Both the position numbers and the translations under genes were made by a program. From a virus (lineage: Duplodnaviria; Caudoviricetes), in IMG/VR virus record IMGVR_UViG_3300037461_000505, positions 1-43,506 of that record: a stretch of 43,506 bases of DNA, one strand, 5' to 3'. The notes under the pieces were generated by a model, which was not told the origin of the DNA, ran no database searches, and was given only the letters and a program-made list of their open reading frames with translations. Below are positions 4,632 to 33,338 of this stretch, one piece after another (the stretch's first letter is position 1; each line of letters opens with the position of its first letter).

Positions 4632-4686
4632 GGTGATGCTATGTGCAACATAAAAAATAAAGGAAGTAGAACTTCAGGAGAGTAAG

Positions 4687-5907: not shown

Positions 5908-5908
5908 T

Positions 5909-6521: not shown

Positions 6522-6524
6522 GAA

Positions 6525-7262
6525 ATGAATGAAAACAACTATTCCCTGCTGAGCTACAATGAACTCCAACTTCTCATTGATGATGGGATTATTGCTAAAG
6601 CTAAGCCTGAGCATGTCAATAGTGCAAGCATTGATATCCAACTTGGTAAGACAATCTTAATTGAGAGGCCTGATCCATTCCTATATGTGAACGGAGAGTA
6701 CAGGAGAGTAAGCCTAAAGAATCGAGAGCAACTTAATATGATTCCTTGGGACTTGGAGCGAGAAGGACCTTATATTATGAGCCCAGGAGAATTCATCTTA
6801 GCTCATAGTGTAGAGGTCTTCCACCTTCCTAATAACATCAGTGCAGAGTACAAACTCAAGAGCAGTATGGCTAGAATTGGCTTAGATCATCTCAATGCAG
6901 GATGGTGTGATGCAGGATGGCATGGCTCAGTTCTTACATTAGAACTCAAAAATCAAAATAGGAGCCATGAAATTATCTTGGAGAGTGGAATTCTTATTGG
7001 ACAGGTTATCTTCTTCTTGCATAATGAAGTACCTACAGGGAAGGATTACTCTACAAGAGGTAGGTACAATAATGACAAGAGTGTGAGTGGCTCTAAGGCG
7101 AAGGATAGAAGTATTATCTTTGGGGATAAAATAGAAGATAGCCTTCAAGAAGAGTATGATGAACAGCATCCAGCAGGGGAAACTTTGGAAGATGAACCTA
7201 AGAGGATCCTTGATATCTCTGAGGTGCGTCTTATGATTGAATCCCTTAATAATGATAGGTAA
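6525..7262 (+). CDS. dcd: dCTP deaminase (trimeric dUTPase superfamily) with an acidic C-terminal extension
   Basis: NSASIDIQLG, PGEFILAHSVE, KSSMARIGL, AGWCDAGWHG, LTLELKN, IGQVIF, GRY motifs. Confidence 0.88.
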   Translation: MNENNYSLLSYNELQLLIDDGIIAKAKPEHVNSASIDIQLGKTILIERPDPFLYVNGEYRRVSLKNREQLNMIPWDLEREGPYIMSPGEFILAHSVEVFHLPNNISAEYKLKSSMARIGLDHLNAGWCDAGWHGSVLTLELKNQNRSHEIILESGILIGQVIFFLHNEVPTGKDYSTRGRYNNDKSVSGSKAKDRSIIFGDKIEDSLQEEYDEQHPAGETLEDEPKRILDISEVRLMIESLNNDR

Positions 7263-7269
7263 TAAGAGA

Positions 7270-7815
7270 ATGCGAAATACAATTGATGTAATGATTGATC
7301 TTGAAACAGTAGGGAAGATGGCAGGCTGTGGAATTCTTAGTATTGGAGCCTGCACTTTTGATGTTAAGAGCGTCTTCAACGAAAACATTTCCCAGATTTC
7401 TTGTCTGAATGCTGGTTTAGTGGAAGATCCTGAAACTCTTAGTTGGTGGAGTAAGCAGCCACGAGAGGTTCATAATGCAGCATTTAGTGGAGAGGTTTCT
7501 CTTATTAAAGTTCTAGGAGACTTCTCCGACTGGCTCAGGACTCTCGGATATCCTAAAGATAAGGTATATGTCTGGGGAAATAGCGCTAAATTCGATCTTG
7601 GAATTCTTGAAGCAGCTTATGCCACAGTAGGAATTGACTATCCGATTGATTACAAGAATGAAAGATGCTACAGGACTCTCAAGAATCTTTACTATGACAT
7701 CAAAGCGGAGAAGTTTGAGGGGCAGAAACATAATGCTCTGCATGATGCAATTCATCAAGCTAGACACGCTTCAGCAATACTAAAGAAACACTTCTCCGTA
7801 ATTAAGGCTCTGTAA
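7270..7815 (+). CDS. DEDDh 3'-5' exonuclease (Rv2179c/DUF5051-like)
   Basis: VMIDLET, VWGNSAKFD, RCYRTL, HNALHDA. The ORF opens at 7237; the ATG at 7270 avoids overlap. Confidence 0.85.
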   Translation: MRNTIDVMIDLETVGKMAGCGILSIGACTFDVKSVFNENISQISCLNAGLVEDPETLSWWSKQPREVHNAAFSGEVSLIKVLGDFSDWLRTLGYPKDKVYVWGNSAKFDLGILEAAYATVGIDYPIDYKNERCYRTLKNLYYDIKAEKFEGQKHNALHDAIHQARHASAILKKHFSVIKAL

Positions 7816-7835
7816 TTAAGGCTTTGTAGAAAAAG

Positions 7836-7872
7836 AAAAACCTCCTAATCTTAATCGACTAGGAGGTTTTTT
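7836..7872. terminator. bidirectional Rho-independent terminator between the convergent arms
   Basis: AAAAACCTCCTA-N12-TAGGAGGTTTTT with A- and T-tracts on both sides, at the convergence point. Confidence 0.9.
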
Positions 7873-7886
7873 ATTGCCTCAAGAAA

Positions 7887-8174
7887 TCAGATAATACCCT
7901 CTACTGCAATCTTGATTTCTTCGAGATCAGCTGCGGTAGCACCCTGCCCGGCTGCGATCAATTCATCGATACGAGCTGTGAGGGCAGTAACAGCATCAGT
8001 AACCTGCTGCTTCTCGGCTGCAATAGTTTCAAGAACTTCTTCTTTTGTTGCCATTATTAGATCTCCTAGGTTAGCTTCTATATTAGACAGCAATTTTACT
8101 AGTACTGTATCCACGCTGTCTAAATGGATATGTACTTCCTTCATTGTTATATTAACCCTCATTAGAATTCCCAA
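7887..8174 (-). CDS. hypothetical helical protein (possible internal start at MATKEEV)
   Basis: Last ORF of the late arm. Ala/Glu-rich amphipathic C-terminal half. Confidence 0.65.
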   Translation of the reverse strand: MGILMRVNITMKEVHIHLDSVDTVLVKLLSNIEANLGDLIMATKEEVLETIAAEKQQVTDAVTALTARIDELIAAGQGATAADLEEIKIAVEGII

Positions 8175-8380
8175 CCTGCATAATGATGAACAGCTGGTTC
8201 TAGTAATTGCACAGTAATAGTTTTATCGTCAGTCATATCATGTAGGATCTCACCATCTGTAGTCCATTTGTCAGGAACAAGACAATCAAATACATATTTA
8301 TCTGATACTGGTAAAAGATAATAATAACTAATATCTGGAATAATCTCATCCACAGCAGGAATATAAATAACCCGTCTCAT
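8162..8380 (-). CDS. hypothetical protein
   Basis: RBS AAGGAG, overlaps the upstream stop. Confidence 0.6.
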   Translation of the reverse strand: MRRVIYIPAVDEIIPDISYYYLLPVSDKYVFDCLVPDKWTTDGEILHDMTDDKTITVQLLEPAVHHYAGWEF

Positions 8381-8655
8381 TTTACTTTCTCCTTCTGTGG
8401 TTTAGTTATGGGTTTGCCTTCTTTAATTAATTCAGCAGAAGTTTTTATAGTTTCTCCAGCTTTTGTATAAGTCACAGTACCATCTGATTTAACTTCCTTC
8501 AACTTCTCCTGGATTCCAGGCAGAAAGGTTGCTGGAATGGTGTTGTCGATCCAGTAATCTACTTTCAGTTTAGTGCCATCCTTTCCACGAAAGATTGCTT
8601 TTTGCGGTACTGCACAATGATTTTGTAACGTTGCTAGAATATTAATTTGACTCAT
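8377..8655 (-). CDS. hypothetical protein (possible tail fibre-associated factor)
   Basis: ATGA overlap with the fibre gene stop. Confidence 0.6.
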   Translation of the reverse strand: MSQINILATLQNHCAVPQKAIFRGKDGTKLKVDYWIDNTIPATFLPGIQEKLKEVKSDGTVTYTKAGETIKTSAELIKEGKPITKPQKEKVK

Positions 8656-12714: not shown

Positions 12715-15700
12715 CTAGTCCAAGTCATTGATCATTTTACTGAAAGGACTGTTAGGTTTCAAGTAATTTCTTACAGTGTGGGAAGTTGGATTCTCTGTTT
12801 GTCCTATAGCTGTATTAACAGCACTTCTCCAGCCAGAGGGAGTTCCAGTCTTCATATACTCTTGACCAAGACTTTCCACAATCTCTGGTGTAAGATTCCC
12901 GCCTCGAATATAGCTCTTGAGAGTCTGTGTTACTTTCTGCCTAGCCTCTCTATCAATGGAACTATAGAAGGTATCCAGGTGATATACCTCTCTGTTTTTA
13001 GCTTCCTCGATTGGCCGTACTCCCATCATCCTAGAAAGAACACTCTTAACTGTCCATACCTCTTCAGGACCTGCCATGATATTACCCTTAGAGGTAATGG
13101 AAGTTCCTGTTAAAAGCTCAGACATTCTAGCTACTGGACGGGAGATAGACTGTAAGGAGAGAGCCTCCATCATCGCCCTTCCTGCATTAGCATCTGCATT
13201 GAAAGCAGCACTTACTACTCTATCTCCTGCAGCAAGTGCTTGTCCTAGAATATTAACCGCAGGAATTGCATTGATACCACTAGTGAAGGGGTCAGGAATT
13301 CTAGGGTTAATATCACCACGAGAAGTAATAGAAGGACCAAGATTCGCAGGCAAGCCGTAGATTACTGTATTAGCCAACCAATTAGGAAGAGCACGATAGG
13401 TGCCTGTTATAAGATCCACATTCTGCTCAGAGAAATGTTCTCCTATCTGCTCTGAGACGAGCTTGAAACCGGGCAGAGAAGAAGCACCGAAAATACTACT
13501 TTGCAGAAGAAGGGTTTTAGCCAGAGCGGCCCAGTTCCTATGCTCTACTACACGATAGATATTCTGGGCCATTGTAAGCATATAAGTCTGGAAGAGGCCC
13601 ATGGCTACTCCCAGAGTACCCTGAAACATGACAGGTCTCTGTGTAGAAGAATAATTACCGATAGCCTTATCCATGAAATCCCTGGCAAAGGTCATAATAC
13701 CAGCCTTGCTAATTCCAGGATATGCCTCCTTAGCTATGTAAGCTCCAGTAATGAAAGCCTGTTCTCTTGTGATAGTCTCCGCTAAGTCAGCAGGTTTCAC
13801 CAACATTTGCAGAAGTTTATCACTCATACTATCAGCCAATTTATCAGAAGCTGAACGGAGAGGACTAAGCTTATTTAAGAATCTCTCTGTTGCTGAGATA
13901 ATACCAGGCTGGAGACTACGTGATTGTGAAAGAGATTCCGTAGCTTCCGAGACAAGAGGCTTAAACATACCATCGGCTTCTGCTTCTTTCATCAAAAGCT
14001 TACCTTCGGCACTACCTCTCCACCTAGTGGAATTATACATAGTCTCAATTACTGCGAACTTTGCATTAGGATCTAAGACACCATCCATATACATAGCTTC
14101 CATCTTCCTACCCATAGCGAGAGAGGTAAGAATAGGCATTGAAAGCATGTTAACTATTGGGTGTGCAAGCTCTGCAAAGCGAAGCATAACTGTAGCAGCC
14201 ATACCATTACTGATAGCCAGAAGTCTAGGAGTCATGTTAGGGCTCTGAGAGATCTGTTGTACATGGTATACCTCCTTAGCTAGATGTTCATCCATACTTT
14301 CGAAAGGCCAAGCGACTCCCTTAGCTTTGGCTTGTGCCATAAGCTTCTCGTAGTCTGCATCACTAGCTATTTTACCTTTACCTAGGAAGTTCTTACCTCC
14401 CTCAAGTACTGGAAGAAAAAGATCTGAGAGCTTAGAGAAGGTATAGTTAAACATCCCTCCTGTTAATTCTGAGGCTTTCTGCCACATCTCACTCTGGTTA
14501 GTACTAGGCAAGCCCATCAAGGTATTCCTGATGATAGTACCAGCATCATGCGGTTTCTGTAGTTGCTTCTGTGTGATATCGAGAGGCTGGTCCCTGAATC
14601 CTTTCTGGCTTCTATATGAGATATCATCAAGCCGGGCCATAACATCTGAGAGCTGCGCGTCCATAAGACTGCGAACACCATAGCCTACGTAGTGGTCATA
14701 GCCATTAGCCAGATCTACTAGAACATCAGTGTTCGTAGAAACAATAGCAGGAGCACTAGCTCCAGAATGCAAAGAAGCAGAATCCGCTGATCCCATAAAA
14801 ATGTTATCGTGTCTTCCTTGTGCGATGTTATAGAGACGTTGATCACTCTTATCTACGATCTCGTACCTTCTACCAAGTTCCCCTGGCTTAAGTTTAGAGA
14901 TGAAAGCATTAACAGCAGTTTGCAGTTCTCCCTCTGTTTTTCCAAACAAAAGCGTTGTTTTATCCTCATGAAGGTCCCACACATACTTAATGTGATTCCC
15001 TCTAGGATTGAATGGAGGAACCCAGAAGCCTATATCATTCACAGGAGGACGACCGTAGAGAGTATCTAAGGTTTTCCTCATCTCGTAGAACTCTCGGCCA
15101 GCACCGCTCATGGCTTGAATTGCATTCTGTACATCTGCATCTACTACCTGAAACGTCTTCCCTTCATATTCTACAGGAATCATGTTACGCTTCATGCCTG
15201 TTACTTTGCCATTAGCGTCTTTGATCTTAATCCAAGGAGTTACTTCATCTTGTACAAAGAATCCGCCATTCTTGAACTCCCTATAACCTTTCAATCCTGC
15301 ATTCACTTTCATAGCAGTTGAAAGTTCTAGAGTCTTTACTTGATCCTTAGCTATAGCATTGAAATAGGGCTTCATTGGCTCCCAGATCTTTGCTACTTGC
15401 TTGTTGATAAGCTCAACAGTGTCCTTTCCAAGATAAGTTATAACACCACCAAGAGCTCCTAAATCCCTGAGAGCCTGATCAGCAGACAAGAACATCCTAC
15501 CACTAATAGCTGAGTCAGTGATATCAGTTAGGCCACTACGAAGAATACTGAGTCTTGCCTTGTTATCTAAGCTGCTAAGGTGATTTCCCACAGCCCTAGC
15601 AGTCTCAGATTTGGAACCTACCATGAATGCGTCTTTGATACTATCATCGGCGAAGTCGAGTTCTCGCTTCATGAGAGAGGCTTTAAGCTCCGCCATTGGG

Positions 15701-18342
15701 ACTTTGTTGAGATTCGTATTAAGTGCGAGTGCCCTCTCTTTGTTAGCCAGATGCATCGAGATATTAGCAGCCTCACTATAAGTACTAATTGGCTTGTTAA
15801 GGAAAAGGATATCCTTTACACCTGAGGCAGCGTAAGCTTGGACTGTCTCCAGTGGGATATTCGTAAGAAGAGACATAGTCTCAAAAGGAACACCTTGGGC
15901 CATAAGAGAGCTAAGCTGGGCATTCTTCTGTGCAACAAGAGTGTCAAAGATTCCCAAGCCATCTACAACATTGGCTTCCTTGCTTGAGAGGGTTTTAATA
16001 CTTTCTTTGATATCAGTACCAGTAAGGACTTCTGTTACTGTATGGCCACTAGGTTGCATACCTGTAGAAACAGTAGGCTTACCTGCTATGATACGAGAAG
16101 GAACATCCAGAACAATCTCAGCTTCTCCTCCAGCCTTGCCTCCAAAGGATAAGAAAGCCCCAACAATCTCATCTTTGTGAACACGATACAAAGAAACACC
16201 CTTACTACTACCAGCAAAACTTAAAGCTACTTGATAGTCAGGTGTATAGGATTCTCCAGCAGAGTGTCCCCTAGCCTGCCCTCGCATTCCACGATATAAG
16301 TAAGTATAACCCTCACTGTCGTACTTAAGATTAGCTTTAAGGGCCTGTGTTTCTTTAGAGTTTATAATCTCTTCTGCATACTGTGCTAGCTTTGACTTCT
16401 CATGACCATATAATTCCATAGCCTGCTTGAAAGGCGTACCACTTTTTAGGGCATCTTGAAGATTATCAGAGCCCCATTTGAGAGCCTGCTCCTCACTAAG
16501 ATTCCTTTGCGGAATATGCTTACTGCCAGGCTGAAGCCTCCTAAGTTCTTCAATACCATTACGAAGAGGCCACATCTGATCCATAGAGAAGCTCTTGGCT
16601 AAGGATCTAGCACCCTCACTAAGAGAGTTCCCATTATCCATGAGATCTACAGTTCTTCTAGTAGGACCCCTAAGGAAAGCTGTCATCTCATCGAGAGCTT
16701 TACTGCTAATACCTTTCACCGCAGGAGCACTGCCAGCACCAATAGTGACAGTCTTAGTAACTGTATTAGTGATAACTTTTTCAAGAACCTTCTCATTTAC
16801 TTTCGAGAAGTTGGGCATGTCCTTACTAAGAACCACTTTCAGATTCGTAGTGAAATCTACATTCCCTGCTGTTACTTCCTTCTGAATCCTAGCATTAATA
16901 GCTTGAAGAGCTGAAACATCATCAGGACTTACAGCAATAAAGCCTTTAGCGAAGGTCTCTGCGTCAAGTTCATCATAGTATTTCAATGTACGCAAGAAGT
17001 CAGCATCTACATAAGAGGTAGTAGATGCAGCATTCTCAAGTGTCTGGTCATAGCGAGGAATAAGATGCCACTGACTAGTTAATCCTTTAGTAAGATCTTC
17101 TTCACTCTTTACTAGATCCGCTGCCGTGCCATAATACTTCATGTCAGTAGATAGCATGAAAGCATCAAAGCGTGGAGAGTAGACCATTGTTACAGCTTTA
17201 TCCTTAGTAGGATCCTTGATACCTTTCGTGGTCAGCGGGATAGGAGCCTCTTCTGGAGCCTTTCCTAGTCCTGTAGGGATTTCTTTGGTACTATCTACTA
17301 AACCTTTAGATTCCTTGAATGTGAAAGAGAGGTCCTCTTTAGCTGTAGCAAAGCGAATCTTATCTACGCCCGCAAATCTTTGAGGATTAGTAGCTATCAT
17401 CTCCATGATAACCTTCTTATCCGCTTCCTCCATTAGGCGCATCTCTGGAGAAAACATATTATTCAGGTCAATTGCTAAGGCCGCTTTCTCTTTTAGAATA
17501 TAAGTGTCCAGCATATTCTTTGTGAGAGGATTAATGAGGTTCGTGGGATCATCAACACTGAAAGGCCGGACTTCTTGAGAGGCAAGCATATCCTCCCAGT
17601 TATCTATGTTATGGGTTCTTTTGGTTATAGCTTCATTAAGGCTATCTACGGTGCTGATTTCCTTTTGTCCTAGGCGAACAGTAGCCTCAGCTGTCTGCTC
17701 TGCGCCCATCTTAACACCTTTTACAACTGCTCTATCTGCAATATGACCTAAAGGACCGCCAATAGCCATCCCAAGAATCATAGACTTCGTGAAGTTCTCT
17801 ACGGGATTCTTGACATAATCCTCCATGAACGGGTGAGCATTCATAGTGAGGAGCATAGCAGCATCGAAGGCTACGTTATCAATCGCAACATTAGCTAGAC
17901 CTGCTGTATATAAACCTCTGACAGCACTCTTATAATCCTTAGAGTGCGCACCTAGGTTTACGAAAGCCTCTGCAATCTTAGTCTTCTGCGCTACTTGGCC
18001 AGCCTCTGAGAAGAAGTTAACTCCGCTTACTCCAGCCCTAGCAGCCTGCATACCCTTGACAGCCAGGCCCATAGGCACAAGCATACCTCCTACGAAAGAG
18101 GCTGTATGGATAGTATCTGGGTGCTCATTATACACACGGAGAGCGTTGCTGTCAATCCTAGAAAGGAGATCCTCTGTTGAGGTTTCTAGGCTAGCAGGTG
18201 TGAGAGAGTTCCAAGTAGAAGCCGCGAAATCCGCTACTGATGCTACAATGCCTCCTACGATGTCTGAGCCAAGAGAGGCTTGCTCATCGTATTTGGCAAT
18301 GAGATCAGTAGAAATTTCCGAGGAGAAGTCTTCAGTTATCAT
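12715..18342 (-). CDS. large internal virion (ejection) protein with an inserted ADP-ribosyltransferase domain
   Basis: 1875 aa, last of three genes after the nozzle. Hydrophobic N-terminal helices. C-terminal NYS...RP.MFQG..G...GLFQTY as in large podophage ejection proteins. Internal LYRG...ESYT...GEAEIV. Confidence 0.8.
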   Translation of the reverse strand: MITEDFSSEISTDLIAKYDEQASLGSDIVGGIVASVADFAASTWNSLTPASLETSTEDLLSRIDSNALRVYNEHPDTIHTASFVGGMLVPMGLAVKGMQAARAGVSGVNFFSEAGQVAQKTKIAEAFVNLGAHSKDYKSAVRGLYTAGLANVAIDNVAFDAAMLLTMNAHPFMEDYVKNPVENFTKSMILGMAIGGPLGHIADRAVVKGVKMGAEQTAEATVRLGQKEISTVDSLNEAITKRTHNIDNWEDMLASQEVRPFSVDDPTNLINPLTKNMLDTYILKEKAALAIDLNNMFSPEMRLMEEADKKVIMEMIATNPQRFAGVDKIRFATAKEDLSFTFKESKGLVDSTKEIPTGLGKAPEEAPIPLTTKGIKDPTKDKAVTMVYSPRFDAFMLSTDMKYYGTAADLVKSEEDLTKGLTSQWHLIPRYDQTLENAASTTSYVDADFLRTLKYYDELDAETFAKGFIAVSPDDVSALQAINARIQKEVTAGNVDFTTNLKVVLSKDMPNFSKVNEKVLEKVITNTVTKTVTIGAGSAPAVKGISSKALDEMTAFLRGPTRRTVDLMDNGNSLSEGARSLAKSFSMDQMWPLRNGIEELRRLQPGSKHIPQRNLSEEQALKWGSDNLQDALKSGTPFKQAMELYGHEKSKLAQYAEEIINSKETQALKANLKYDSEGYTYLYRGMRGQARGHSAGESYTPDYQVALSFAGSSKGVSLYRVHKDEIVGAFLSFGGKAGGEAEIVLDVPSRIIAGKPTVSTGMQPSGHTVTEVLTGTDIKESIKTLSSKEANVVDGLGIFDTLVAQKNAQLSSLMAQGVPFETMSLLTNIPLETVQAYAASGVKDILFLNKPISTYSEAANISMHLANKERALALNTNLNKVPMAELKASLMKRELDFADDSIKDAFMVGSKSETARAVGNHLSSLDNKARLSILRSGLTDITDSAISGRMFLSADQALRDLGALGGVITYLGKDTVELINKQVAKIWEPMKPYFNAIAKDQVKTLELSTAMKVNAGLKGYREFKNGGFFVQDEVTPWIKIKDANGKVTGMKRNMIPVEYEGKTFQVVDADVQNAIQAMSGAGREFYEMRKTLDTLYGRPPVNDIGFWVPPFNPRGNHIKYVWDLHEDKTTLLFGKTEGELQTAVNAFISKLKPGELGRRYEIVDKSDQRLYNIAQGRHDNIFMGSADSASLHSGASAPAIVSTNTDVLVDLANGYDHYVGYGVRSLMDAQLSDVMARLDDISYRSQKGFRDQPLDITQKQLQKPHDAGTIIRNTLMGLPSTNQSEMWQKASELTGGMFNYTFSKLSDLFLPVLEGGKNFLGKGKIASDADYEKLMAQAKAKGVAWPFESMDEHLAKEVYHVQQISQSPNMTPRLLAISNGMAATVMLRFAELAHPIVNMLSMPILTSLAMGRKMEAMYMDGVLDPNAKFAVIETMYNSTRWRGSAEGKLLMKEAEADGMFKPLVSEATESLSQSRSLQPGIISATERFLNKLSPLRSASDKLADSMSDKLLQMLVKPADLAETITREQAFITGAYIAKEAYPGISKAGIMTFARDFMDKAIGNYSSTQRPVMFQGTLGVAMGLFQTYMLTMAQNIYRVVEHRNWAALAKTLLLQSSIFGASSLPGFKLVSEQIGEHFSEQNVDLITGTYRALPNWLANTVIYGLPANLGPSITSRGDINPRIPDPFTSGINAIPAVNILGQALAAGDRVVSAAFNADANAGRAMMEALSLQSISRPVARMSELLTGTSITSKGNIMAGPEEVWTVKSVLSRMMGVRPIEEAKNREVYHLDTFYSSIDREARQKVTQTLKSYIRGGNLTPEIVESLGQEYMKTGTPSGWRSAVNTAIGQTENPTSHTVRNYLKPNSPFSKMINDLD

Positions 18343-18343
18343 C

Positions 18344-20005
18344 TTATCTAAATCCCATAGTGAATGCTGTGGGGTTAATATCTAGTATATCTGGGTCTGC
18401 TTCTAAAGGAATGTTCTTACCATTTGCACTGTAGGGATCCGTAGAATCAAACAGTTTACCTAAACCACCAGAGAAACTGCTTCTACTGAGTTTCAACTGA
18501 GATTGTAGAGTGGTAAGGTCAATATTTCCGTACAGGCCTTTGTTATTCTTCTCTGCATAAGATTTAGCAGCATCATTAAGAAACTGCATTCTCTGTGCTT
18601 TCAACTCTCTAGGGGCCTTATTCACATACTCATCCATGAGAGTCTTTACTGAGACAGGACCTGGCTTAGCTGTCTGAATGCTATCAAGAAGGACTGCTAC
18701 TTCAGGATTAGAGCGAAGAGTAATATCACCATTCCACTTATCAACATCATTAAGAGTGTCATTCGTACGTTTTTTGTTAAGAACCTGTTCTGTTACCAAA
18801 GTACGGAATTGTTTCTTCTTCTCTTCGCCAATCTTACCAGTATCCATCAAGCTCATCTTCGTGTAATCACTAAGAACGGCTGCATACTTAGGATCCTTAA
18901 CTGCCAGAGTCTTCATACTATCCACAAAGAACTGCTCTGTGTTTACCAAATTATAGGCATAAGTAATCTCGGCCTTAGCATCTCTCTCATTCTGGCCTGT
19001 TAATTCTGAATGCATTTTAGGGGCTATTTGCAGAGCAGCTTTATTATTGGAGTAAGCTAGGGGAAGAAGTTGATCATTAGTGAAATTAGGACTAAGAATG
19101 GCCATAACATCTGGATTCTTAGTCTTCATTGCCACAAGACCTACACCTGCAGCTTTGGTTGGGTCATTCTCTACACCAGGAACCAGATAGGAGATAGCCT
19201 TAACGGAATCAGCGGGAATAGTGAGAGCAATCTGCTCTACCATCTCTTGTTGCTTGTCATCTCTTCCAAGACGCTTCTGGATATTCGCATTAGTTACTGC
19301 CATGAAACCTTTGAGAGTGGCCTCCATACTCTGAATCGTTGGATTCTCTAGGACGAGTCTTCTACTTAGCTCCAGAGCTTTAGTCTGAGCTTTCTCGAAC
19401 TGCTGTCTAACAACACGAGTTTCGTTAGAATCAACCAGATGCTGTCCCCACTCAGGAGAAGCTCTGTCAAGTCTTTCTGCGTTAGCGAGAGCTGCCTCAA
19501 GTCCTGGAAGACCCACCTGACTCTCAGCAAGTTCCCGAGTCTTCTTCATGATCTCAGATGAAGTTGAAGCTACAGATGCCTGAAGACTAATAAGACCCGC
19601 CTGCTGCTCTAAAGGCTTATCTGCTAGCTTACTAATAGAATCCATCTGAGCACGGACACCCTCAAAGATGCTATCTGAGATCTGATTATTTACTTGTTGG
19701 ACAGGCTGAATCTGGGTGTTAGCTTGCTGTGCTGGCCCCCCACTATTGATGAAGATAGCGTTAGGATTAGCATCCTTTACGCTTTGTACATTAGTATAGA
19801 GAGGATTAGCCTTAGTTTGTACCTTAGGCTTAGGATCATCAAAGTAATCCCCAGGAAGGTCTACAAATCCTTCATCTACTGTCTTAGGTACATACTTATT
19901 ATCTTGAACTCGCATCTTCTCAATGAGATTATCAAGTCCTGCTTGATTCTCCATTCTGTCTCTTTGAGCAACTTGATCAGCTAGGATCTCTTCTAAAGTA
20001 GCCAT
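18344..20005 (-). CDS. internal virion (ejection) protein
   Basis: Helical Gln/Ala-rich protein in the middle of the ejection triplet. The ORF opens at 20026; the ATG at 20005 has RBS GAGAGG. Confidence 0.65.
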   Translation of the reverse strand: MATLEEILADQVAQRDRMENQAGLDNLIEKMRVQDNKYVPKTVDEGFVDLPGDYFDDPKPKVQTKANPLYTNVQSVKDANPNAIFINSGGPAQQANTQIQPVQQVNNQISDSIFEGVRAQMDSISKLADKPLEQQAGLISLQASVASTSSEIMKKTRELAESQVGLPGLEAALANAERLDRASPEWGQHLVDSNETRVVRQQFEKAQTKALELSRRLVLENPTIQSMEATLKGFMAVTNANIQKRLGRDDKQQEMVEQIALTIPADSVKAISYLVPGVENDPTKAAGVGLVAMKTKNPDVMAILSPNFTNDQLLPLAYSNNKAALQIAPKMHSELTGQNERDAKAEITYAYNLVNTEQFFVDSMKTLAVKDPKYAAVLSDYTKMSLMDTGKIGEEKKKQFRTLVTEQVLNKKRTNDTLNDVDKWNGDITLRSNPEVAVLLDSIQTAKPGPVSVKTLMDEYVNKAPRELKAQRMQFLNDAAKSYAEKNNKGLYGNIDLTTLQSQLKLSRSSFSGGLGKLFDSTDPYSANGKNIPLEADPDILDINPTAFTMGFR

Positions 20006-20019
20006 AGTTTTATCCTCTC

Positions 20020-20925
20020 TTACCACTCATAACCAGCGAAGTCTTCGGCAGCTTGTTGATTACTGATACTGCTGTAAGGATTAACATATCCAGGATTCTG
20101 AAGATCATAGGGTATGTATTGGTAATCACTTGCACCGGATACTGAAGAGAAAGGACTTCCACTACTACCCTGAGAAGAAGGAGTCACATTTCTTGTTGTT
20201 GTAGTACTATTAGGAGGAGTAGCCCCAACTCCTTGAGAACTGCTACTAGCGGAAGAAGTACTAAGACCCTGAGAACTGCTAGTGCTTTTAGAGGTTGATT
20301 CCCGAAGAAGTTCAAGAGCTTTAAGATAATCAGTGGTCCCGCTATTATCAATACGAGTCAGGGCCTCTAACGTATTAGATAAGTTTGCTGCGATATTTCC
20401 GTAAGAAGTAGCTTGCTGAGCACCGAGAGCACCCGCTGACTGAGCACTATTCTGTGCTAGCTGCTGAGAGAGAAGCCCTTGCATAGAAGAAGCTGAGGTT
20501 CCAGCTCCTTGAATAGCAGCCATAATAGACGGCATCTGGGATTCCATGCTCTTCTGTAGATTCTGCTGCATGAGCATATTCGCATCTCTGAACGCAGCTT
20601 CTTTCGTATAATTACTCATGAGGCTGCCAACCTCACCTTGCACAGCTTGCCTTCTATTTAATTGAGCTTGATAATTAGGATTACCATTTACTCCTGTTTG
20701 AATAAAGGCAAGGAGAGAGGCGAGAGCTTCTGGATTAGAAATACCAGAGAAGCTCTCAGATTCTGATTGTGAGTTCTGAGTCCCAAAAGAGCTTTGATTA
20801 CTAACACTATTCTGAGTAGAGGGAACAAAGCCTTCAGTGTTAGTATTCTGAATCTCATTAAAACCACTCCTCATATTACTGCTGCCAGTAGAAGGACCCC
20901 ACGTTCTATTTGATGCGATAGCCAT
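20020..20925 (-). CDS. internal virion (pilot/ejection) protein
   Basis: Ser/Gln/Ala/Gly-rich low-complexity protein directly after the nozzle gene. RBS AGGAG. Confidence 0.65.
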   Translation of the reverse strand: MAIASNRTWGPSTGSSNMRSGFNEIQNTNTEGFVPSTQNSVSNQSSFGTQNSQSESESFSGISNPEALASLLAFIQTGVNGNPNYQAQLNRRQAVQGEVGSLMSNYTKEAAFRDANMLMQQNLQKSMESQMPSIMAAIQGAGTSASSMQGLLSQQLAQNSAQSAGALGAQQATSYGNIAANLSNTLEALTRIDNSGTTDYLKALELLRESTSKSTSSSQGLSTSSASSSSQGVGATPPNSTTTTRNVTPSSQGSSGSPFSSVSGASDYQYIPYDLQNPGYVNPYSSISNQQAAEDFAGYEW

Positions 20926-20940
20926 AATGTATTCTCCTAG

Positions 20941-23900
20941 TTATCTTCTGCTGCTAAGTGTACCACGGTATTCAATGTATTGTATATCGTAGTTTCCAGA
21001 GATTTCGATTGTGTGCCACCTTGCAGCAATATGGCCAAAGCAGTTCATGTTTAGTACGTCAGTGTAGGTATAGAGTTGCTCTATATCTTTATCTAGAGTT
21101 AGACCATTAAGTGTACCAGCTAACTTTATGGTTCCTGTAGAGGGAAGCCTAAAATGAACCCGGACTTCTTCGAGATAAGTGTAGCCCTGCCTAAAGTATC
21201 CAATCTTCCCGTAACGCATGAAGGATTCTAAAGGTTTAGCATCCATATTGTAAATGAAACCATCATTTACTAGGATACCCATATCTACACCAAGATTACT
21301 ATAGGGTACTACATCCCCACTAGCTGAGTTAAACGGACTATAATCAAGGAGAGTTTGGAACTCAGCCTTCATCTTACCCCACTTCTTGAGGGCAGTATCT
21401 AGGACTAAGGCTCCCACATAAGTTGGATAATAAGGAGCTGGGATGCCATCTTGCATTAAGAAAGTAGCACCTGGATAGGTATATCCGAAGTCTACCGGAG
21501 TTAGAACAGAGGGAGCTGATATCTGATTATAGTTGGGGCCTTGAAGTACTAGGTTATATCCTGCCTGTGGATCATTCGTCACATAGGCAGGCTCTCCTGG
21601 ATCAGTAGTAGCTTCATACCAGGTTACATTACTTTGATACGCAGTCATTGTGAGGGGGATATCTATATCTGCTAGGTCCCCATTCCACATACTTGTTATA
21701 CTCTCACCCCCTATTGTATACCAGAATTCATAAGTAGTATATTCTATATTTACATAGGGAATACCCGCCTCACTTATTATTACCTCTGTATGATCTCCCG
21801 TACTCATCAGGGGTTCACCTGGAATTTTATAGTTAGGATCTATAACACGGAGAGTAGAATTGCTTATGTAAGGAGCAGAAGGAGGACCTGCCGGGGGTTC
21901 TTCTATTCTCCATATATAGATAGCCTCAAATCTGGTAGGATTGGGCGCATAAACCCCTACAGTAGTGTGTGAGTAGGTATACTTACTTAAACCGCTATAA
22001 TACTCAGGAACCTCTAAAGCGTGGATATAGGCCTCATTTAATAACCTCGCAAAGATTTGGTATGCATCATTAGGGCTGTTTCCGAGATAAGATCTATTAC
22101 CAGTAAAATCTATATCAGGTCCAGTAGATACCCCAAAAATATCATCTGTGGGTTTCATACTAGCTACGAAGTGCTGAATCTTGATAATAGGTCTAATAGT
22201 ACCTATCGTTGTACTTCTTTTAATTCTGAGAGCTTTCTTGAGTGTCTTCGTTAAGGTATAAATAGCATAATTAGTTCCAACCCCACTAAAAGTATTCCCA
22301 CTATTCACAGAGCTAGCTGCGGTAGGCATATCCAAAATTTCTTCTGTACACTCAAGAGAACTGCCATAAGCATTCACATTATCGTAAACAGTGCCTTCGA
22401 TTTTGGTGGCAACGTAGGCATTCATTGCCGCAGTAATCTCGGGGAATATTCCTGTATCATCTGTTCTGAATCTAAGTCCTGTAATTGCCCCTTCTTCTAC
22501 AGGGCTAGGAGAAACAGCATCGAAGATAGCCTTATTTGCATTCTGAATAAGAGAGAGATTCGCCCACTCTAATTCTTGTGCGTTAGCATAAGCTAGAAGG
22601 GTAGTATCCATCACTCCAAGCCAGGCTGTCCCAGCTGCAATAGAACCATAGCCTCTATATCCCAGATCATCCATGTGATCAGGATAGGTAGGGGTTACGG
22701 CATGATAATAATTATTAAGTACTAAATCTTTAGCGTTTACAGCAATCGCACCTATAGTAGCATCTACTTTATTATTAGAATTAGGTACATGAGCTCCTAC
22801 ATTATTTACTACATAATCATTCATAGGAGTTACTTGATTAGCGAATGTTCCCTTACCCGTGGGTCTCCACACTAAATACATGTCATCATCATAAGGAGGA
22901 TCATTCTCTCGCTTATTATCAATGTAGGCAGGCATAGGTACAGTACCATCTACTGGATCTACTATATATACATCAGAAGGCACAATCAAGCCTGGCCAAT
23001 TAAGACCATTTACGAGAATATTAAGATTAAGAGAACGAACAACGTTAAGAGTCGCACTAACAAGTCCATCAATAATCCTATTATTCGTTACACAAATAAA
23101 GAGATAGCGGCCATTCAGAAAGTCTAAGTAGATGCTACTACCAGTAAGTATAGGATCAAATTCAACCCTAGGAACTGCATGAACACTACGAACAACAGGA
23201 CTCACTCCAGTATCTGACTCTCTAAGAAAGTCATAGATCTCCGGGATAATATCTTCGAATTGATGCACTTTGCTAAGAGCGTTATAGCTCCCAATCTTCT
23301 TAATGCCTGTGTTCGTATAAGCGTATTGCTCCATCTCTGTGATAGAGTTAGTTACTTCTTTAGAGGTCCTAATACCAGCTGTATCTGTGATAGTTGTAGC
23401 TTCCCAGATCATTGTGGTACTCTGGATATAGCGTACGCCTACAATACCTTTAGTGGTATAGATTACGAAGTTATCTCCTTGGCTCTTTACGGTTACAATT
23501 CTACCTAGGATGCCGTTGAAGATAGCATTCCCTGCCATAGTGACAAGAGAGGGGGTAAAATCAGAGAGAAGGAGAGGATTAGACCAAGCTATGCTATTCG
23601 CAGAATCCCAGAATGCAAGAGAGGAGTTAGCCCGAAAAATTCCTATCTGTCCTGCCATATTAAGGAAACTAGGAACTACAGCAGTGAAGGTGAGAGTCAC
23701 ACCAGTTCCTGTCACTGTGTAATCAGTATTTGCCAGCTTCTGATAAGAAGCCTCACCTTGTCTATAAAGATAGAGAACATTTTTAATAATACAGTATGTC
23801 CATTCTTTGATAGCAGGACTGGTAGGAGCCGTCATAGCAACTCCCTGAATCCAATTAGCTCCCGCTACACTAGTAGATTCAGTATACCAGATACCATCAT

Positions 23901-24192
23901 CACACAAGGCGATGATAAGATTAACGTAATTAGCTAATTGAAACAAGAATACTTTGTCACAATGATGCAAGGTTTGATCTAAAGCGTCAATGTCAAGCTG
24001 AGAGTTCGCGCCGAAGTAGCTCCTATACCCGTATGAGGTAGGGATGAAATTATATCCTTCATAGGCTACGATTGGAGGTGGATCTTCTGGATCATCCTCC
24101 CTTCCTGTATAGCGCAAATTCTCCATCACAGAATTAGGATCTGTAACAAAGAAGCTTTTCGTTACATCTATTCTCTTAGTTTTCTGTGGCAT
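20941..24192 (-). CDS. tail nozzle / stabilisation protein (P22 gp10 / T7 gp12 analogue) with a large central insert
   Basis: N-terminal YNFIPTSYGY and propeller-like repeats (SIAWS, FVIYT..GI). Lies between the adaptor and the ejection genes. Confidence 0.65.
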   Translation of the reverse strand: MPQKTKRIDVTKSFFVTDPNSVMENLRYTGREDDPEDPPPIVAYEGYNFIPTSYGYRSYFGANSQLDIDALDQTLHHCDKVFLFQLANYVNLIIALCDDGIWYTESTSVAGANWIQGVAMTAPTSPAIKEWTYCIIKNVLYLYRQGEASYQKLANTDYTVTGTGVTLTFTAVVPSFLNMAGQIGIFRANSSLAFWDSANSIAWSNPLLLSDFTPSLVTMAGNAIFNGILGRIVTVKSQGDNFVIYTTKGIVGVRYIQSTTMIWEATTITDTAGIRTSKEVTNSITEMEQYAYTNTGIKKIGSYNALSKVHQFEDIIPEIYDFLRESDTGVSPVVRSVHAVPRVEFDPILTGSSIYLDFLNGRYLFICVTNNRIIDGLVSATLNVVRSLNLNILVNGLNWPGLIVPSDVYIVDPVDGTVPMPAYIDNKRENDPPYDDDMYLVWRPTGKGTFANQVTPMNDYVVNNVGAHVPNSNNKVDATIGAIAVNAKDLVLNNYYHAVTPTYPDHMDDLGYRGYGSIAAGTAWLGVMDTTLLAYANAQELEWANLSLIQNANKAIFDAVSPSPVEEGAITGLRFRTDDTGIFPEITAAMNAYVATKIEGTVYDNVNAYGSSLECTEEILDMPTAASSVNSGNTFSGVGTNYAIYTLTKTLKKALRIKRSTTIGTIRPIIKIQHFVASMKPTDDIFGVSTGPDIDFTGNRSYLGNSPNDAYQIFARLLNEAYIHALEVPEYYSGLSKYTYSHTTVGVYAPNPTRFEAIYIWRIEEPPAGPPSAPYISNSTLRVIDPNYKIPGEPLMSTGDHTEVIISEAGIPYVNIEYTTYEFWYTIGGESITSMWNGDLADIDIPLTMTAYQSNVTWYEATTDPGEPAYVTNDPQAGYNLVLQGPNYNQISAPSVLTPVDFGYTYPGATFLMQDGIPAPYYPTYVGALVLDTALKKWGKMKAEFQTLLDYSPFNSASGDVVPYSNLGVDMGILVNDGFIYNMDAKPLESFMRYGKIGYFRQGYTYLEEVRVHFRLPSTGTIKLAGTLNGLTLDKDIEQLYTYTDVLNMNCFGHIAARWHTIEISGNYDIQYIEYRGTLSSRR

Positions 24193-24607
24193 TTCTATTA
24201 TCCTTCATTTCTACATCTATATTATCAGCATTGGGTATTACATCAAAAGATATTACTTTACCCTTAAAGTAACCCGTGAAATACGGAATCCACTGTGCAG
24301 TTTTTCTGTCTACTGGAACGAATTGTTTTAGTCGTACCACCTTTCGGGGAAGATTCTTTACCCATATAACATGAGGTACAGGAAACCATCCTAGGAATTT
24401 CACACCGTATGCTTTTCTAATAGCTAAATACCCACCATACTTATCCCATCGCCATAAAGCATATGACCAACAGTTCCCTCTAAGGGAATCAGGATATACT
24501 CTATTACCCAGATAGGACAAAGCAACGACTACACACATAAGTGCCATAGCTATCCCCCAGACACCTAGACTTATACTATGTATAACGAAGTGTATTACAG
24601 ATCTCAC
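24176..24607 (-). CDS. membrane-anchored protein with a Cys/His motif pair; candidate lysis enzyme
   Basis: N-terminal hydrophobic segment, GNCWSYA and PHVIWV, RBS AAGGAGG. Confidence 0.55.
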   Translation of the reverse strand: MRSVIHFVIHSISLGVWGIAMALMCVVVALSYLGNRVYPDSLRGNCWSYALWRWDKYGGYLAIRKAYGVKFLGWFPVPHVIWVKNLPRKVVRLKQFVPVDRKTAQWIPYFTGYFKGKVISFDVIPNADNIDVEMKDNRNATEN

Positions 24608-24619
24608 GGAAATACCTCC

Positions 24620-24952
24620 TTATGGAGTATTTACCTCTTTTGCTTTGTTACCGTAATTGAGATCGGAATCTATCATCCAAGACTCATTACTTTTACGTCT
24701 TTCTACTGCTCTTCTATCTGATGTGGGACAAGAACTACAAGCTTCGAGTCTCCCTTCGATATTAGATATTCTCTCTTTGGCCTTAGAAGATACAGCTTTA
24801 ATAGCATCTCGTATTTCTTGATTAGAGTCATAAAGTTCTTTAATTGCCTTCTGCATTTCGCGCTGTCTCATAAGACCCTCAGCGAAAGCTATAATCCCTA
24901 TCACACAAAAGAGACTAAATATAATAATAGTACCCCAAGGAATAGAATTCAT
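24620..24952 (-). CDS. membrane protein with an N-terminal TM helix and coiled coil (holin- or spanin-like candidate)
   Basis: TIIIFSLFCVIGIIAFA TM segment followed by a charged coiled coil. Confidence 0.6.
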   Translation of the reverse strand: MNSIPWGTIIIFSLFCVIGIIAFAEGLMRQREMQKAIKELYDSNQEIRDAIKAVSSKAKERISNIEGRLEACSSCPTSDRRAVERRKSNESWMIDSDLNYGNKAKEVNTP

Positions 24953-25389
24953 CGTTTTCCCCTCCCTGATTCTCTATCAATTCTATTCTCAAGTTTTGTT
25001 AATTCCTGTAGGAAACGGGTCTCTAATCTAGCTTCCATCCTATTAGCATCAGAAGCCCTGAAGCGATCAGAGGTTGCAGCTACATTTCCAGCCATAAGAG
25101 AGTCCATTGCTTTCTCTTGGGCTTTAAGACGCTCTAAAGCGGCTGGAATCTGCTCGATATACTGACTCCTCTGTGCGGCAAGAACTGTCAGCTCAGAAAC
25201 TTTATTGTTAAGAGAGATTAAAGATGTTCCTGCAGCAATTACACAGGTTGTTAATCCTCCAGTAATAACATGATTCCAATTGATTTGTCCTGTTTCAGAA
25301 TCTCGCAAGACTGCGGGCAGAGCCATAGCGAAGTCTATACTAGACAATCCTCGTACTTTCTGTAGGAATGGGGTAAGATCAATATCCAT
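24949..25389 (-). CDS. membrane-associated coiled-coil protein (lysis cassette candidate)
   Basis: Weakly hydrophobic VITGGLTTCVIAAGTSLISL segment plus a coiled-coil C-terminus. ATGA overlap with the next gene. Confidence 0.55.
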   Translation of the reverse strand: MDIDLTPFLQKVRGLSSIDFAMALPAVLRDSETGQINWNHVITGGLTTCVIAAGTSLISLNNKVSELTVLAAQRSQYIEQIPAALERLKAQEKAMDSLMAGNVAATSDRFRASDANRMEARLETRFLQELTKLENRIDRESGRGKR

Positions 25390-25400
25390 ATTTGTATTTT

Positions 25401-25997
25401 TTACCTCGCTACCGCTAGAATAGAATCCTCTAAATCATTTCGAAACATCTTATATGACTCTGTGCCCGTTGAAAGGTAGGCCCTGAAACTATTATCATCC
25501 CCGATTGTTTTGAAGATTCTGGCAGCCGCTAAATCAATGATAGTCCAGGGCATGATTTCCAGCATCCAATGCTCACCTAGATCGCTTAGAACTGGAGCAT
25601 ATTGATAATAACCTACCTCTAAAGCAGGGGTAAGCTCTTTGAGAGTGTAAGTCAAGGAATTTCCAGCTACATAATAGGTATCAGGTTGCATGATACCACC
25701 AGGAGTGAAAATTTTATCCGCGGAGATTGGCTGTAAATACCTAAGAACTGCTGTGGGTTTTACATACTTGAACTTACGAAACCTAGTAACTACTGGAACA
25801 ATTAGGTTATTGAACGTGATTGTATCCCCATAGAGTGTTGCATCTATGGGGATAGTGGTTTCTACGAGATCATTAGCAAAGGAGGCTTTTATAGTGCATT
25901 CTGCCAACATAGCGTTAATAGCAGATTTAATATCAGCGAGTTTATCTGGCCTCTTTACTATCTCTGTAACAGCAGTGGCGGTCTCTGTAAAGTTCAT
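25401..25997 (-). CDS. head-tail adaptor protein
   Basis: MNFTE...KRPD...AIN N-terminus and HWML...PW.I...AA C-terminus typical of podophage adaptors. Lies between capsid and nozzle. Confidence 0.7.
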   Translation of the reverse strand: MNFTETATAVTEIVKRPDKLADIKSAINAMLAECTIKASFANDLVETTIPIDATLYGDTITFNNLIVPVVTRFRKFKYVKPTAVLRYLQPISADKIFTPGGIMQPDTYYVAGNSLTYTLKELTPALEVGYYQYAPVLSDLGEHWMLEIMPWTIIDLAAARIFKTIGDDNSFRAYLSTGTESYKMFRNDLEDSILAVAR

Positions 25998-26278: not shown

Positions 26279-27484
26279 TTAAGCAGCAGCAGTAAGATTA
26301 GAAACCCAAGCACAGCCAAATGGATTGATAAGCTCAACAGCAAGTTCCGAAGTAAGAGAGCCACCAACACCATCTGTACCGTTCTCAACCATCTTACCTC
26401 CACTACCATACTCTTCTGCGACCGTATCACGACCATCCATGTAAGCCAGTTTGAGAGCAGGAAGGTCAATAATGATAAGATTGCCCGCGGTAGTAGAGGT
26501 AGCCAGGCCGTTCATGAGAGGATGTTCAACCAGGTTGATCTCACCCTTATAGAACTTAAACTTCTGGAAGCGCATACCAAAGCTAGTTTCTTGCTGGGTA
26601 ATAGTAACATCACCATACTTCACAGCGATCTGATGCAGGACCTTCATGCCAACACTGTCTGCAATACCAAAGCGCATACCAGGATTGGACATGTCAGTAG
26701 AGTAAGCGAAAGCAGGGGCGCACAGAGTGACAAGCTCATCGAAGGTAGTCGTAGCGCCGGCGGCATTTGTATTAGCTGCAGCATACTGCTCCATCGCGTC
26801 GATAATACCTTGAGTAGCATGAATCGGCTGAGTTCCACTAGTATCCATCTTAGGTTGACCCCAGAGGATAGCGCTCTCGATATCAATACTATGGAACAGA
26901 GAGCAATCCTTACGGTTCTCAGCGACGTTGCTATGACCCATCTCAGCCATAGAAGCACGAGCGGTATCTGTCAGGCCCCAAGCATTACGGAAGATCTGCG
27001 TGTAGTTCGGGACATAGACGATAGACAAACTACGAGCTGCTGGGCGAGTACTACCTTCTGCAAAAGCTGTACCAATTTGAATGATATTATCGGCAGCGTT
27101 AAGAGCAGCGGCTACGACACGACCGAAAGCACGAGTAACTACAACCTCAGTAGCAGACGTTACAGAAGTAACACGATAGTTCTCACGAGTACGCGTATTG
27201 AAGAGAACTGTGCCTGCAGCCATACCAGTAGTAGAACCAACCGTGAGAGTCGTAGCACCTACAAGGTCACCCGCCGTAGAAGTCGTCTTGACGAATTCAA
27301 GGGTCTTCGAGAAGTAACCATGCGTAGAAGACTTGGCACGGCTCTTTCCACTCTGCGAAGAGAGGGTAAAGAGAGGAGCTGAGCCATTAGGAAAGAGCCG
27401 AAGCATAGTACCTGCAAAAGAGCGGGTATTGAGTTCTGCAGGATTAAAGCCATTAGTATTAAAAATACCAGAAAGAATTGCCAT
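26279..27484 (-). CDS. major capsid protein (DUF5309/SU10-like HK97 fold)
   Basis: AFAEGSTRP...NYTQIFR...TDTA and DIESAILWG motifs, biased codon usage, follows the scaffold, has its own terminator. Confidence 0.88.
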   Translation of the reverse strand: MAILSGIFNTNGFNPAELNTRSFAGTMLRLFPNGSAPLFTLSSQSGKSRAKSSTHGYFSKTLEFVKTTSTAGDLVGATTLTVGSTTGMAAGTVLFNTRTRENYRVTSVTSATEVVVTRAFGRVVAAALNAADNIIQIGTAFAEGSTRPAARSLSIVYVPNYTQIFRNAWGLTDTARASMAEMGHSNVAENRKDCSLFHSIDIESAILWGQPKMDTSGTQPIHATQGIIDAMEQYAAANTNAAGATTTFDELVTLCAPAFAYSTDMSNPGMRFGIADSVGMKVLHQIAVKYGDVTITQQETSFGMRFQKFKFYKGEINLVEHPLMNGLATSTTAGNLIIIDLPALKLAYMDGRDTVAEEYGSGGKMVENGTDGVGGSLTSELAVELINPFGCAWVSNLTAAA

Positions 27485-32743: not shown

Positions 32744-32779
32744 GTCATTACCTTTGGATATTATGTACTGTTAGGGAGA

Positions 32780-32955: not shown

Positions 32956-32971
32956 TTGCTTTCTTACAGAC

Positions 32972-33325: not shown

Positions 33326-33338
33326 TACCCTAGACAAT

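Follow-up and report, generated by a model that had tools for sequence, protein, structure and literature searches.

Phage particles can carry ADP-ribosyltransferases (ARTs) into the cell together with the viral DNA. Virion-carried ARTs are known from Alt of phage T4, and they have been predicted for MuF fusions and polyvalent proteins. In ARTs of the R-S-E clade, an arginine and a serine bind NAD+ (nicotinamide adenine dinucleotide), a glutamate stabilizes an oxocarbenium-like transition state, and the residue two positions before this catalytic glutamate helps to choose the acceptor. T4 Alt and the other head-packaged phage ARTs, as described in the available parts of two studies (PMC5512222, PMC9503650), are the precedent for the domain that we report here. 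This domain lies within a protein of 1875 residues, hereafter the giant, which is encoded on the minus strand (12715–18342) of the 43,506-base IMG/VR record IMGVR_UViG_3300037461_000505; this stretch, which we call the window, is a whole phage-like record. We found that residues ~546–754 of the giant (16081–16707, minus strand) form a domain with a predicted ART fold of the C3/VIP2 type, as judged from an AlphaFold2 model, VIA-align and the Foldseek list. An earlier note on this DNA had claimed an ART domain here, and that claim is upheld as a predicted fold with an invariant arginine, serine and catalytic glutamate in 30 of 30 sequences. We give about an even chance to the fuller reading, that the domain is an active NAD-dependent mono-ADP-ribosyltransferase that travels in the virion and reaches the host cytoplasm as the DNA enters.

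The three putative active-site motifs stand at the residues of the 1875-residue open reading frame at which they had been described, and the proposed span, 16100–16330 (residues 671–748), contains all of them. In YTYLYRG (residues 679–685), the putative NAD-binding arginine of the R-S-E triad is R684, whose codon lies at 16291–16293 on the minus strand. In GESYTPDYQVALSF (residues 696–709), the putative serine of the 'STS' position is S698 (16249–16251, minus strand), here within a motif S-Y-T. GGEAEIVL (residues 738–745) holds E740-A-E742 (16117–16125, minus strand; E740 at 16123–16125 and E742 at 16117–16119), of which E742 is the putative catalytic glutamate and E740 is variable. The two strings that had been taken as linkers were located as well. 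The upstream one, rich in Thr, Gly and Ala, comprises residues 525–544 (16711–16770, minus strand); it is identified by position only, and its last five residues are within the folded segment. The downstream string comprises residues 754–770, and from residue 755 to residue 770 (16033–16080, minus strand), KPTVSTGMQPSGHTVT, it is predicted to be a disordered linker: the predicted local distance difference test score (pLDDT) is below 50 at model residues 216–231, which agrees with a flexible boundary. We also observed that this disordered stretch (..GMQPSGHTVT) is conserved as well as the domain in the nine closest homologues, which is unusual for a mere linker, and residues 755–770 could be a processing or docking site.

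Conservation across the family singles out the putative catalytic residues. In 30 domain sequences sharing 22–89% identity, G678, R684, G685, S698 and E742 are invariant, and E658, D675, G692, E697, A706, F709 and Y719 are at least 90% conserved. When 30 full-length giants were aligned, those five residues were the sole invariant columns between D475 and S910. Position 683 is tyrosine or tryptophan in 29 of 30, and the serine motif reads S-[YFM]-[TS] across the family, not S-T-S. In a four-way alignment with annotated phages the core is free of gaps, and R684, G685, S698 and E742 are again invariant. The core forms a local conservation peak (0.59/0.51, against 0.28–0.46 around it) in a middle region that otherwise evolves fast. 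The E-x-E motif proposed in the earlier note stood only in part: E742 is invariant in all 30 sequences, but position 740 is glutamate in only 17, the others having N (6), K (2) or G, L, R, S or Q (one each), and it reads E/E/N/E in the four-way alignment. Of the 30 sequences, 17 have the E and one has the Q of a [QE]-x-E motif, and the other 12 have N, K, G, L, R or S. The string GGEAE is kept in this phage and its nine closest relatives.

The AlphaFold2 model of residues 540–770, built with a 30-sequence alignment, had a pLDDT of 87 and a predicted template modelling score (pTM) of 0.84. It begins with an N-terminal helical subdomain of nine helices (residues 547–671; 16330–16704, minus strand; DSSP helices at model residues 8–132), which is poorly conserved and varies by insertions and deletions between clades. 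The conserved beta core follows (residues 679–745; 16108–16308, minus strand) and consists of strand 1 (YTYLYRG), strand 2 (ESYT), a helix (PDYQVALSF), strands 3 and 4, a loop and strand 5 (EAEIVL). In model numbering, the strands occupy residues 140–146, 158–161, 177–183, 187–191 and 203–206, the helix 164–171 and the disordered tail 216–231. R684, followed by G685, ends strand 1, S698 lies within strand 2, and E742 is the first residue of strand 5. Four features of the R-S-E clade are present on the predicted model: an ART fold, an arginine at the end of strand 1, a serine in strand 2 and a glutamate at the start of strand 5.

Structure searches with this model returned the ART fold. When VIA-align was run against 48,161 representative PDB chains, 67 had Z ≥ 2 and 11 had Z ≥ 5, with none reaching 8, and the matches spanned model residues 1–221. 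Each of these 11 has the ART fold, and the first ten rows are proteins named as ARTs or toxins (Z 5.8–6.9, 133–165 aligned residues): Certhrax (Z 6.9, 153 aligned, root-mean-square deviation (rmsd) 4.5), CPILE-a (Z 6.8, 162 aligned), C3bot2 (Z 6.8, 152), the Listeria ART-ARH toxin (Z 6.6, 143), VIP2 (Z 6.6, 157), C2-I (Z 6.5, 157), C3stau2 (Z 6.4, 147), full-length Certhrax (Z 6.3, 165), Vis (Z 6.1, 145) and ART2.2 (Z 5.8, 133). The matches to the C3/VIP2/Certhrax structures span the N-terminal helical subdomain as well as the core. The eleventh row is anthrax lethal factor residues 265–546 (Z 5.5), which we take to be its inactive VIP2-like domain, and the rows after it are HopU1, C3larvin, a Serratia-type ART toxin/immunity pair, SpvB and ExoS. 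A best Z of 7–8 is common for models that lack true matches; the score alone therefore proves little, and the support lies in one fold family filling the top of the list.

The Foldseek list against the PDB was weak, with no entry at E ≤ 0.001, and was dominated by ARTs, mostly of the R-S-E type (VahC, ExoS/ExoT, ART2.2, VsdC, TreX/TreTu, C3, Vis, C2-I and CDTa); the visible rows of other kinds were a DUF305 fragment and GRK2. The modelling and Foldseek search that had been suggested as a check on residues 540–770 thus favour an ART-like fold. In BFVD there were three matches at E ≤ 0.001, two of which are unnamed pieces of ~920 residues (32% and 19% identity) that are probably orthologous giants. 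Weaker BFVD rows included several phage proteins named 'ADP ribosyltransferase', a 'minor capsid protein' and a 'head morphogenesis domain' protein. Neighbours in the ESM Atlas included viral PF03496 clusters with scores of 0.77–0.82, which are leads only.

Profile comparison linked the family to ModA and ModB of phage T4. When the family profile was compared by hhalign with an alignment of eight ModA/ModB sequences (a search for ModB homologues gave six relatives), the probability was 59% (E 9e-5, 43 columns), which is below any safe threshold, and the core alone gave 60.5%. The alignment placed YLYRG on QLYRG, with R684 on R73, and ESYT on DSFT, with S698 on S99; R73 and S99 are both invariant in the Mod alignment. 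A greedy alignment placed E740-A-E742 on ModB E171-Q-E173, with near-zero confidence in that stretch. The gathering thresholds of PF03496 (ADPrib_exo_Tox), PF01129 (ART) and PF26816 (Mod) were not reached. For Alt there was no diverse profile, because the T4 Alt relatives among the 120 matches listed were all 98–100% identical to T4 Alt; Alt was compared as a single sequence. Two weak Pfam rows, DUF294_C (E 0.015) and 2CompARG (E 0.12, residues 473–530), are absent from the orthologues and were taken as chance.

The domain is known in one architecture only and, from the sequence comparisons, is an old and fixed part of the giant. With tblastn we found 19 phage records, 18 of which cover at least 80% of the giant at 30–37% identity; they include EBPR podovirus 3, Polaromonas phage Tiera, Pseudomonas phages PaMx41, PaMx33, PaMx35, PaMx43, PaMx46 and PaMx32, PaP2, 119X and Ph_15. 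The nineteenth, Aeromonas phage P5, matches residues 1556–1833 only. A megablast search with the giant's gene against the phage collection gave no match. An exhaustive search of 1.84 billion representative proteins with residues 540–770 gave 23 matches at E ≤ 0.001, comprising 21 giants of 1738–1957 residues with the domain at residues ~525–800, one protein of 434 residues and one repeat protein of 1000 residues. The repeat protein, which matched in four weak stretches, was judged a false positive and removed before alignments A2 and A3 were made; the 434-residue protein was kept in A2 and removed from A3, and a 97%-identical giant was left out of A2 and A5. A word-based search added eight closer giants at 56–97% identity. 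In a collection of viral contigs, 23 of 23 confirmed loci have the match within an open frame that is at least 1581 residues long, begins 500–629 residues upstream of the match and runs off the fetched flank.

The earlier note had described the domain as inserted into the giant, and as a possible swappable cassette. Aligning the orthologues led us to reject this: the segment is at the same place in four of four aligned full-length orthologues (EBPR podovirus 3, Tiera, Ph_15 and this phage), in 30 of 30 full-length giants and in all 23 viral contigs. Because all full-length relatives carry the same architecture, the domain is not an insertion peculiar to this phage. It is the upstream helical half of the domain that varies, by insertions and deletions.

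The gene for the giant, a stop-free open reading frame, lies in a minus-strand late block that includes the small and large terminase, the portal, an SU10-type major capsid protein and several large unassigned proteins. It stands past the capsid gene and three homologues of 'structural protein' genes, as the fourth of a conserved series whose products have 1083, 301 and 560 residues, then the giant. The three genes upstream (560, 301 and 1083 residues; 18344–24192, minus strand) follow the gene order of PaMx41 ORF22, ORF21 and ORF20. The depositors of PaMx41 labelled all four of ORF20–23 'structural protein', ORF23 being the counterpart of the giant, and the adjoining genes 'hypothetical'. The 1083-residue product matches a PHROG virion structural protein, and the giant matches phrog_16165 (E 9e-200). 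The relatives with described morphology are podoviruses, according to the available parts of PMC9959647 and PMC12747347. Residues 951–1285 (14488–15492), a well-modelled region of helices and strands, weakly match chain 8vb2_A of the PhiM1 pre-infection ejectosome (Z 6.1, rmsd 5.6, 225 aligned), in a row that ranks 25th and has helical rows of similar Z around it. This match is the only long alignment in the VIA-align list for the C-terminal model, the other rows being small helical bundles, and it may be taken as a lead towards an ejection role, not significant alone. From gene order, the depositors' labels and this one weak structural row, we infer that the giant is an internal virion or ejection protein. 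A Kyte–Doolittle hydropathy plot of the giant had moderate peaks (1.31–1.41) and no clear transmembrane helix.

Some further observations concern the giant and its annotated relatives. The most conserved block of the giant is residues ~1520–1875 (12718–13780), especially residues 1551–1600, with a mean column conservation of 0.80. It contains an invariant run, Q1568-R-P-x-x-F-Q-G...G-L-F-Q-T-Y, for which the AlphaFold2 pLDDT is below 50. Two weak matches of the giant, to a 3431-position PHROG of unknown function (E 1.6e-4) and to the NCBIfam family 'PLxRFG tail-700' (17 bits, cut-off 100), fall in this block; they were the leads behind the idea that the giant is a relative of the N4 virion RNA polymerase. 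The block may be a packaging or ejection module shared by giant phage proteins. In Ph_15, the label 'ejection protein peptidoglycan transglycosylase' on the coding sequence (CDS) 2968–8517 is unsupported, as Pfam finds no domain there, and so is the label 'portal protein' on CDS 286–1203 (305 residues), because the portal homologue in the window is a protein of 662 residues.

If the domain is active, R684 and S698 would hold NAD+, and E742 would stabilize the oxocarbenium-like transition state for cleavage of the nicotinamide–ribose bond and transfer of ADP-ribose. With E740 present, the acceptor in the clade of this phage would be the arginine side chain of host proteins, which is also what Alt and the C2/iota/VIP2 enzymes modify. 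The giant would be packed in the particle and leave it with the DNA, which would bring the ART into contact with NAD+ and host targets in the cytoplasm; at that point the ART would probably still be attached to the entry conduit. If the giant does belong to the internal virion or ejection proteins, its enzyme would be at work before expression of the first phage gene. Its targets could plausibly be host RNA polymerase or defence proteins, although nothing points to either. The earlier note had argued here that no phage RNA polymerase is visible and that the promoters are of the sigma70 type. The first statement agrees with our family scans, which gave no RNA polymerase match among the window open reading frames scanned (a scan with PF00940 was uninformative, as its controls gave no signal). 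The second was not borne out: between 32000 and 43506 there are 27 sigma70-like promoter sites, compared with 26.5 ± 4.9 in shuffled sequences. Because such sites are no commoner than in shuffles, the argument from promoters is not established.

Taken further, these ideas lead to a proposal that we hold only tentatively and regard as rather doubtful as a whole. The podophage lineage of PaMx41, PaP2, 119X and this phage would carry, in its DNA-ejection giant, an unannotated and highly divergent R-S-E ART that is held at the mouth of the entry channel; as the first phage activity in the cell, it would modify host RNA polymerase, defence proteins or the passing nucleic acid before gene expression, a tethered 'first-strike' variant of the T4 Alt principle.

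Several results weigh against an active, virion-delivered ART. Pfam recognized no family in the giant or in 26 full-length orthologues, including the Ph_15 protein annotated 'peptidoglycan transglycosylase', and no ART family for the domain at E up to 10 or in the 30 family members at E up to 1. PF03496 gave 0 candidates over the whole genome, the domain was not found in NCBIfam, nor in the PDB by phmmer and hmmsearch with profiles A2 and A3, and the family profile, compared by hhalign with T4 Alt as a single sequence, showed no relation to it (probability 1.8%). On the structural side, the best Foldseek match in the PDB had an E of only 0.06, the top VIA-align Z of 6.9 is no higher than the 7–8 that unmatched models typically reach, and the core is small, with five strands and only 14 residues from the arginine to the serine. 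As E740 varies across the family, not every member can be specific for arginine. The model of the C-terminal 1105 residues of the giant (771–1875) has a pLDDT of 61, falling below 50 over the most conserved block, at residues ~1560–1700, and Foldseek with this model gave only generic long helical proteins (best E 0.13). A PDB sequence search with the giant matched no solved chain, and a relationship to the N4 virion RNA polymerase was rejected, since a profile of the 30 giants compared with N4 gp50 by hhalign gave a probability of 0.1%.

We weighed the ART reading against other accounts of the same data. It is hardly credible that a long protein without any ART-related domain simply has these motifs by chance. 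The bare order of R, S and ExE is no commoner than chance would give: in its loose form, R-x(10-60)-S-x(30-60)-ExE, it occurs nine times in the giant and is present in 99.6% of 500 composition-preserving shuffles (mean 12.9), and chance would also fit the absence of any database sequence match to ARTs. It is thus conservation and fold that carry the case. A stricter pattern, [YFW]RG..Sx[TS]..ExE, is present once in the giant and in 2.2% of shuffles. Against chance stand the invariance of the residues in 30 of 30 sequences, a confident AlphaFold2 model, two independent structure searches that give ARTs almost exclusively, and the ModA/ModB profile alignment, which puts the arginine and serine motifs in register. 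A degenerate ART fold without catalysis, retained as a structural element of the virion or ejection complex, is improbable. The VIP2-like domain of anthrax lethal factor, presumably an example of a non-catalytic ART fold, appears in the list of fold matches (Z 5.5), the domain of the giant matches no ART sequence model, its core has five strands and a short spacing from R to S, and the rest of the giant has no recognizable enzyme. The three ART active-site residues are nevertheless among just five invariant columns in some 430 fast-evolving residues, which disfavours a structural role, since structure alone would give no cause to preserve precisely the catalytic triad.

It is also possible, although unlikely, that the domain is an active NAD enzyme of the ART fold other than a protein-arginine transferase, such as an NAD+ glycohydrolase or a modifier of nucleic acid (the incoming DNA end, or host DNA or RNA) or of a small molecule (for example, a defence signal). 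Such an enzyme would fit the freedom of position 740 to vary, with its six alternatives to glutamate and glutamine counted above, the minimal core with its Foldseek likeness to the small Rhs ART toxins TreX and TreTu, and the place of the domain, which would adjoin the DNA conduit; DNA- and RNA-modifying ARTs and NADases also occur within the same two clades, as stated in the available part of PMC9503650. Opposed to this are the full E-x-E kept in this phage and its nine closest relatives, and the best fold matches, which are protein-modifying enzymes of the C3/VIP2/Certhrax type that share the helical N-terminal subdomain. Finally, an active ART could modify host or phage proteins in the producing cell, late in infection as particles assemble, instead of being delivered active and exposed to the next host. 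We regard this as decidedly improbable. The gene belongs to the late operon, so the enzyme would be made in NAD+-rich cytoplasm, and no macro, ARH or NADAR gene for removing ADP-ribose was found among the 45 window open reading frames scanned with Pfam, so that there is no obvious restraint on it. However, the giant into which the ART is fused looks like a virion protein in its size, in the position of its gene and in the labels given by depositors, and T4 makes Alt late and yet injects it (PMC5512222, in the part available). An active mono-ADP-ribosyltransferase delivered with the DNA is thus the reading that we carry forward, at the even chance given above.

The rest of the window has the following features. 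A plus-strand replication block encodes a family A DNA polymerase, a primase/helicase, a dCTP deaminase-like protein, exonucleases and a Dda-like helicase; the dCTP deaminase-like gene (6525–7262, plus strand) matches PF22769 (E 1e-28). A small open reading frame at 34847–35140 (plus strand) has a weak HNH_3 match (E 5e-4, below the cut-off). Neither of these two genes has a bearing on the ART finding. In the late block, sequence matches indicate that the head module is of the SU10 type, because the major capsid protein (26279–27484, minus strand) matches Pfam SU10_MCP (E 7e-36) and the portal (28475–30463, minus strand) weakly matches SU10_portal (27.9 bits, just below the cut-off of 30). Between the capsid gene and the gene for the 1083-residue protein, at 24176–25997 (minus strand), there are four small open reading frames (143, 110, 146 and 198 residues) with no family matches. 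PaMx41 has an annotated holin, endolysin and spanins at this position, and the four frames are possibly a lysis cassette. The gap from 32743 to 33387 contains, immediately upstream of the small terminase gene, two neighbouring GC-rich hairpins with T-runs on the minus strand (32938–33000), which resemble terminators.

What appears to be new at this locus is a divergent R-S-E ART, invisible to Pfam, NCBIfam and PDB sequence searches, that is fixed in a giant late protein of a podophage lineage; injected or head-packaged phage ARTs as such are already established. We found no paper that describes this domain, or an ART in ejection or internal virion proteins of this family, in a search that left most subscription journals outside. 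A 2022 survey (PMC9503650), in the part available, reports ARTs in only 3% of podoviruses, and its genome list includes PaMx41 and EBPR podoviruses. In its supplement, as far as available, PaMx41 occurs once, in the genome list, which suggests that the ART domain of the giant was not called there. If the domain is active, an enzyme would arrive in the cell with these phages before their genes are expressed, which would bear on how podophages without an RNA polymerase seize host transcription or blunt defences. The lineage includes PaMx41, which several studies of defence against phages in P. aeruginosa name. According to the available text of a 2025 preprint, Gp15, an ejection protein of phage ICP3, doubles as a factor against the cyclic-oligonucleotide-based anti-phage signalling system (CBASS). 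Enzymatic cargo on ejection proteins is topical because an ejection protein such as this can have such a second role.

Among known systems, the best structural matches to the domain are in the C3/VIP2/C2-I/iota/Certhrax group (1r45, 1qs1, 2j3v, 5gtt, 4fk7), with Z 6.5–6.9, 152–162 aligned residues and both subdomains covered. The domain and this group have in common an aromatic-Arg-Gly that ends strand 1, a strand-2 serine followed by a helix that ends in an F-A-G-like motif, and an E-x-E at strand 5. They differ in that identity in the structural alignments is 8–14%, with no match to a sequence model, and in that the domain of the giant has 14 residues from R to S, five strands instead of a fuller sandwich, and S-Y-T instead of S-T-S. 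The members of the group are secreted toxins, whereas the domain lies mid-chain in a phage protein of 1875 residues. T4 ModA and ModB (PF26816), phage-encoded R-S-E ARTs that act on host proteins, are the sole family reached by sequence profiles. Unlike the domain of the giant, they are free early proteins of 200–207 residues and not virion components, and ModB has 12 more residues between R and S.

Systems that resemble the giant in mode of delivery differ from it in other ways. Podovirus ejection proteins, such as those of the T7 gp16 type and of the PhiM1 ejectosome (8vb2), are comparable in that the giant is likewise encoded by a large late gene after two smaller 'structural' genes. However, the giant shows no sequence relation to solved chains in the PDB, Pfam finds no lytic transglycosylase domain in it or in the Ph_15 orthologue, and its structural row with 8vb2 is no stronger than the unrelated helical rows around it. 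In polyvalent proteins and N4-like virion RNA polymerases (Tox-ART-HYD2 clade; PMC5512222, in the part available), an ART is likewise built into a very large and presumably injected virion protein. These ARTs have an H-Y-D active site according to the same source, whereas the triad of the giant is R-S-E, and polyvalent proteins have at least two effector domains, whereas Pfam recognized no second one in the giant or its 26 orthologues. T4 Alt (PF03496 and PF26846), which is packaged in the capsid and specific for arginine, would share the mode that we propose, in which an R-S-E ART is synthesized late, travels in the particle and is injected along with the DNA, as set out in the available parts of PMC5512222 and PMC9503650. 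By contrast, Alt is a separate head protein of 682 residues in a myovirus, and the ART described here is an internal domain of a podovirus-type giant.

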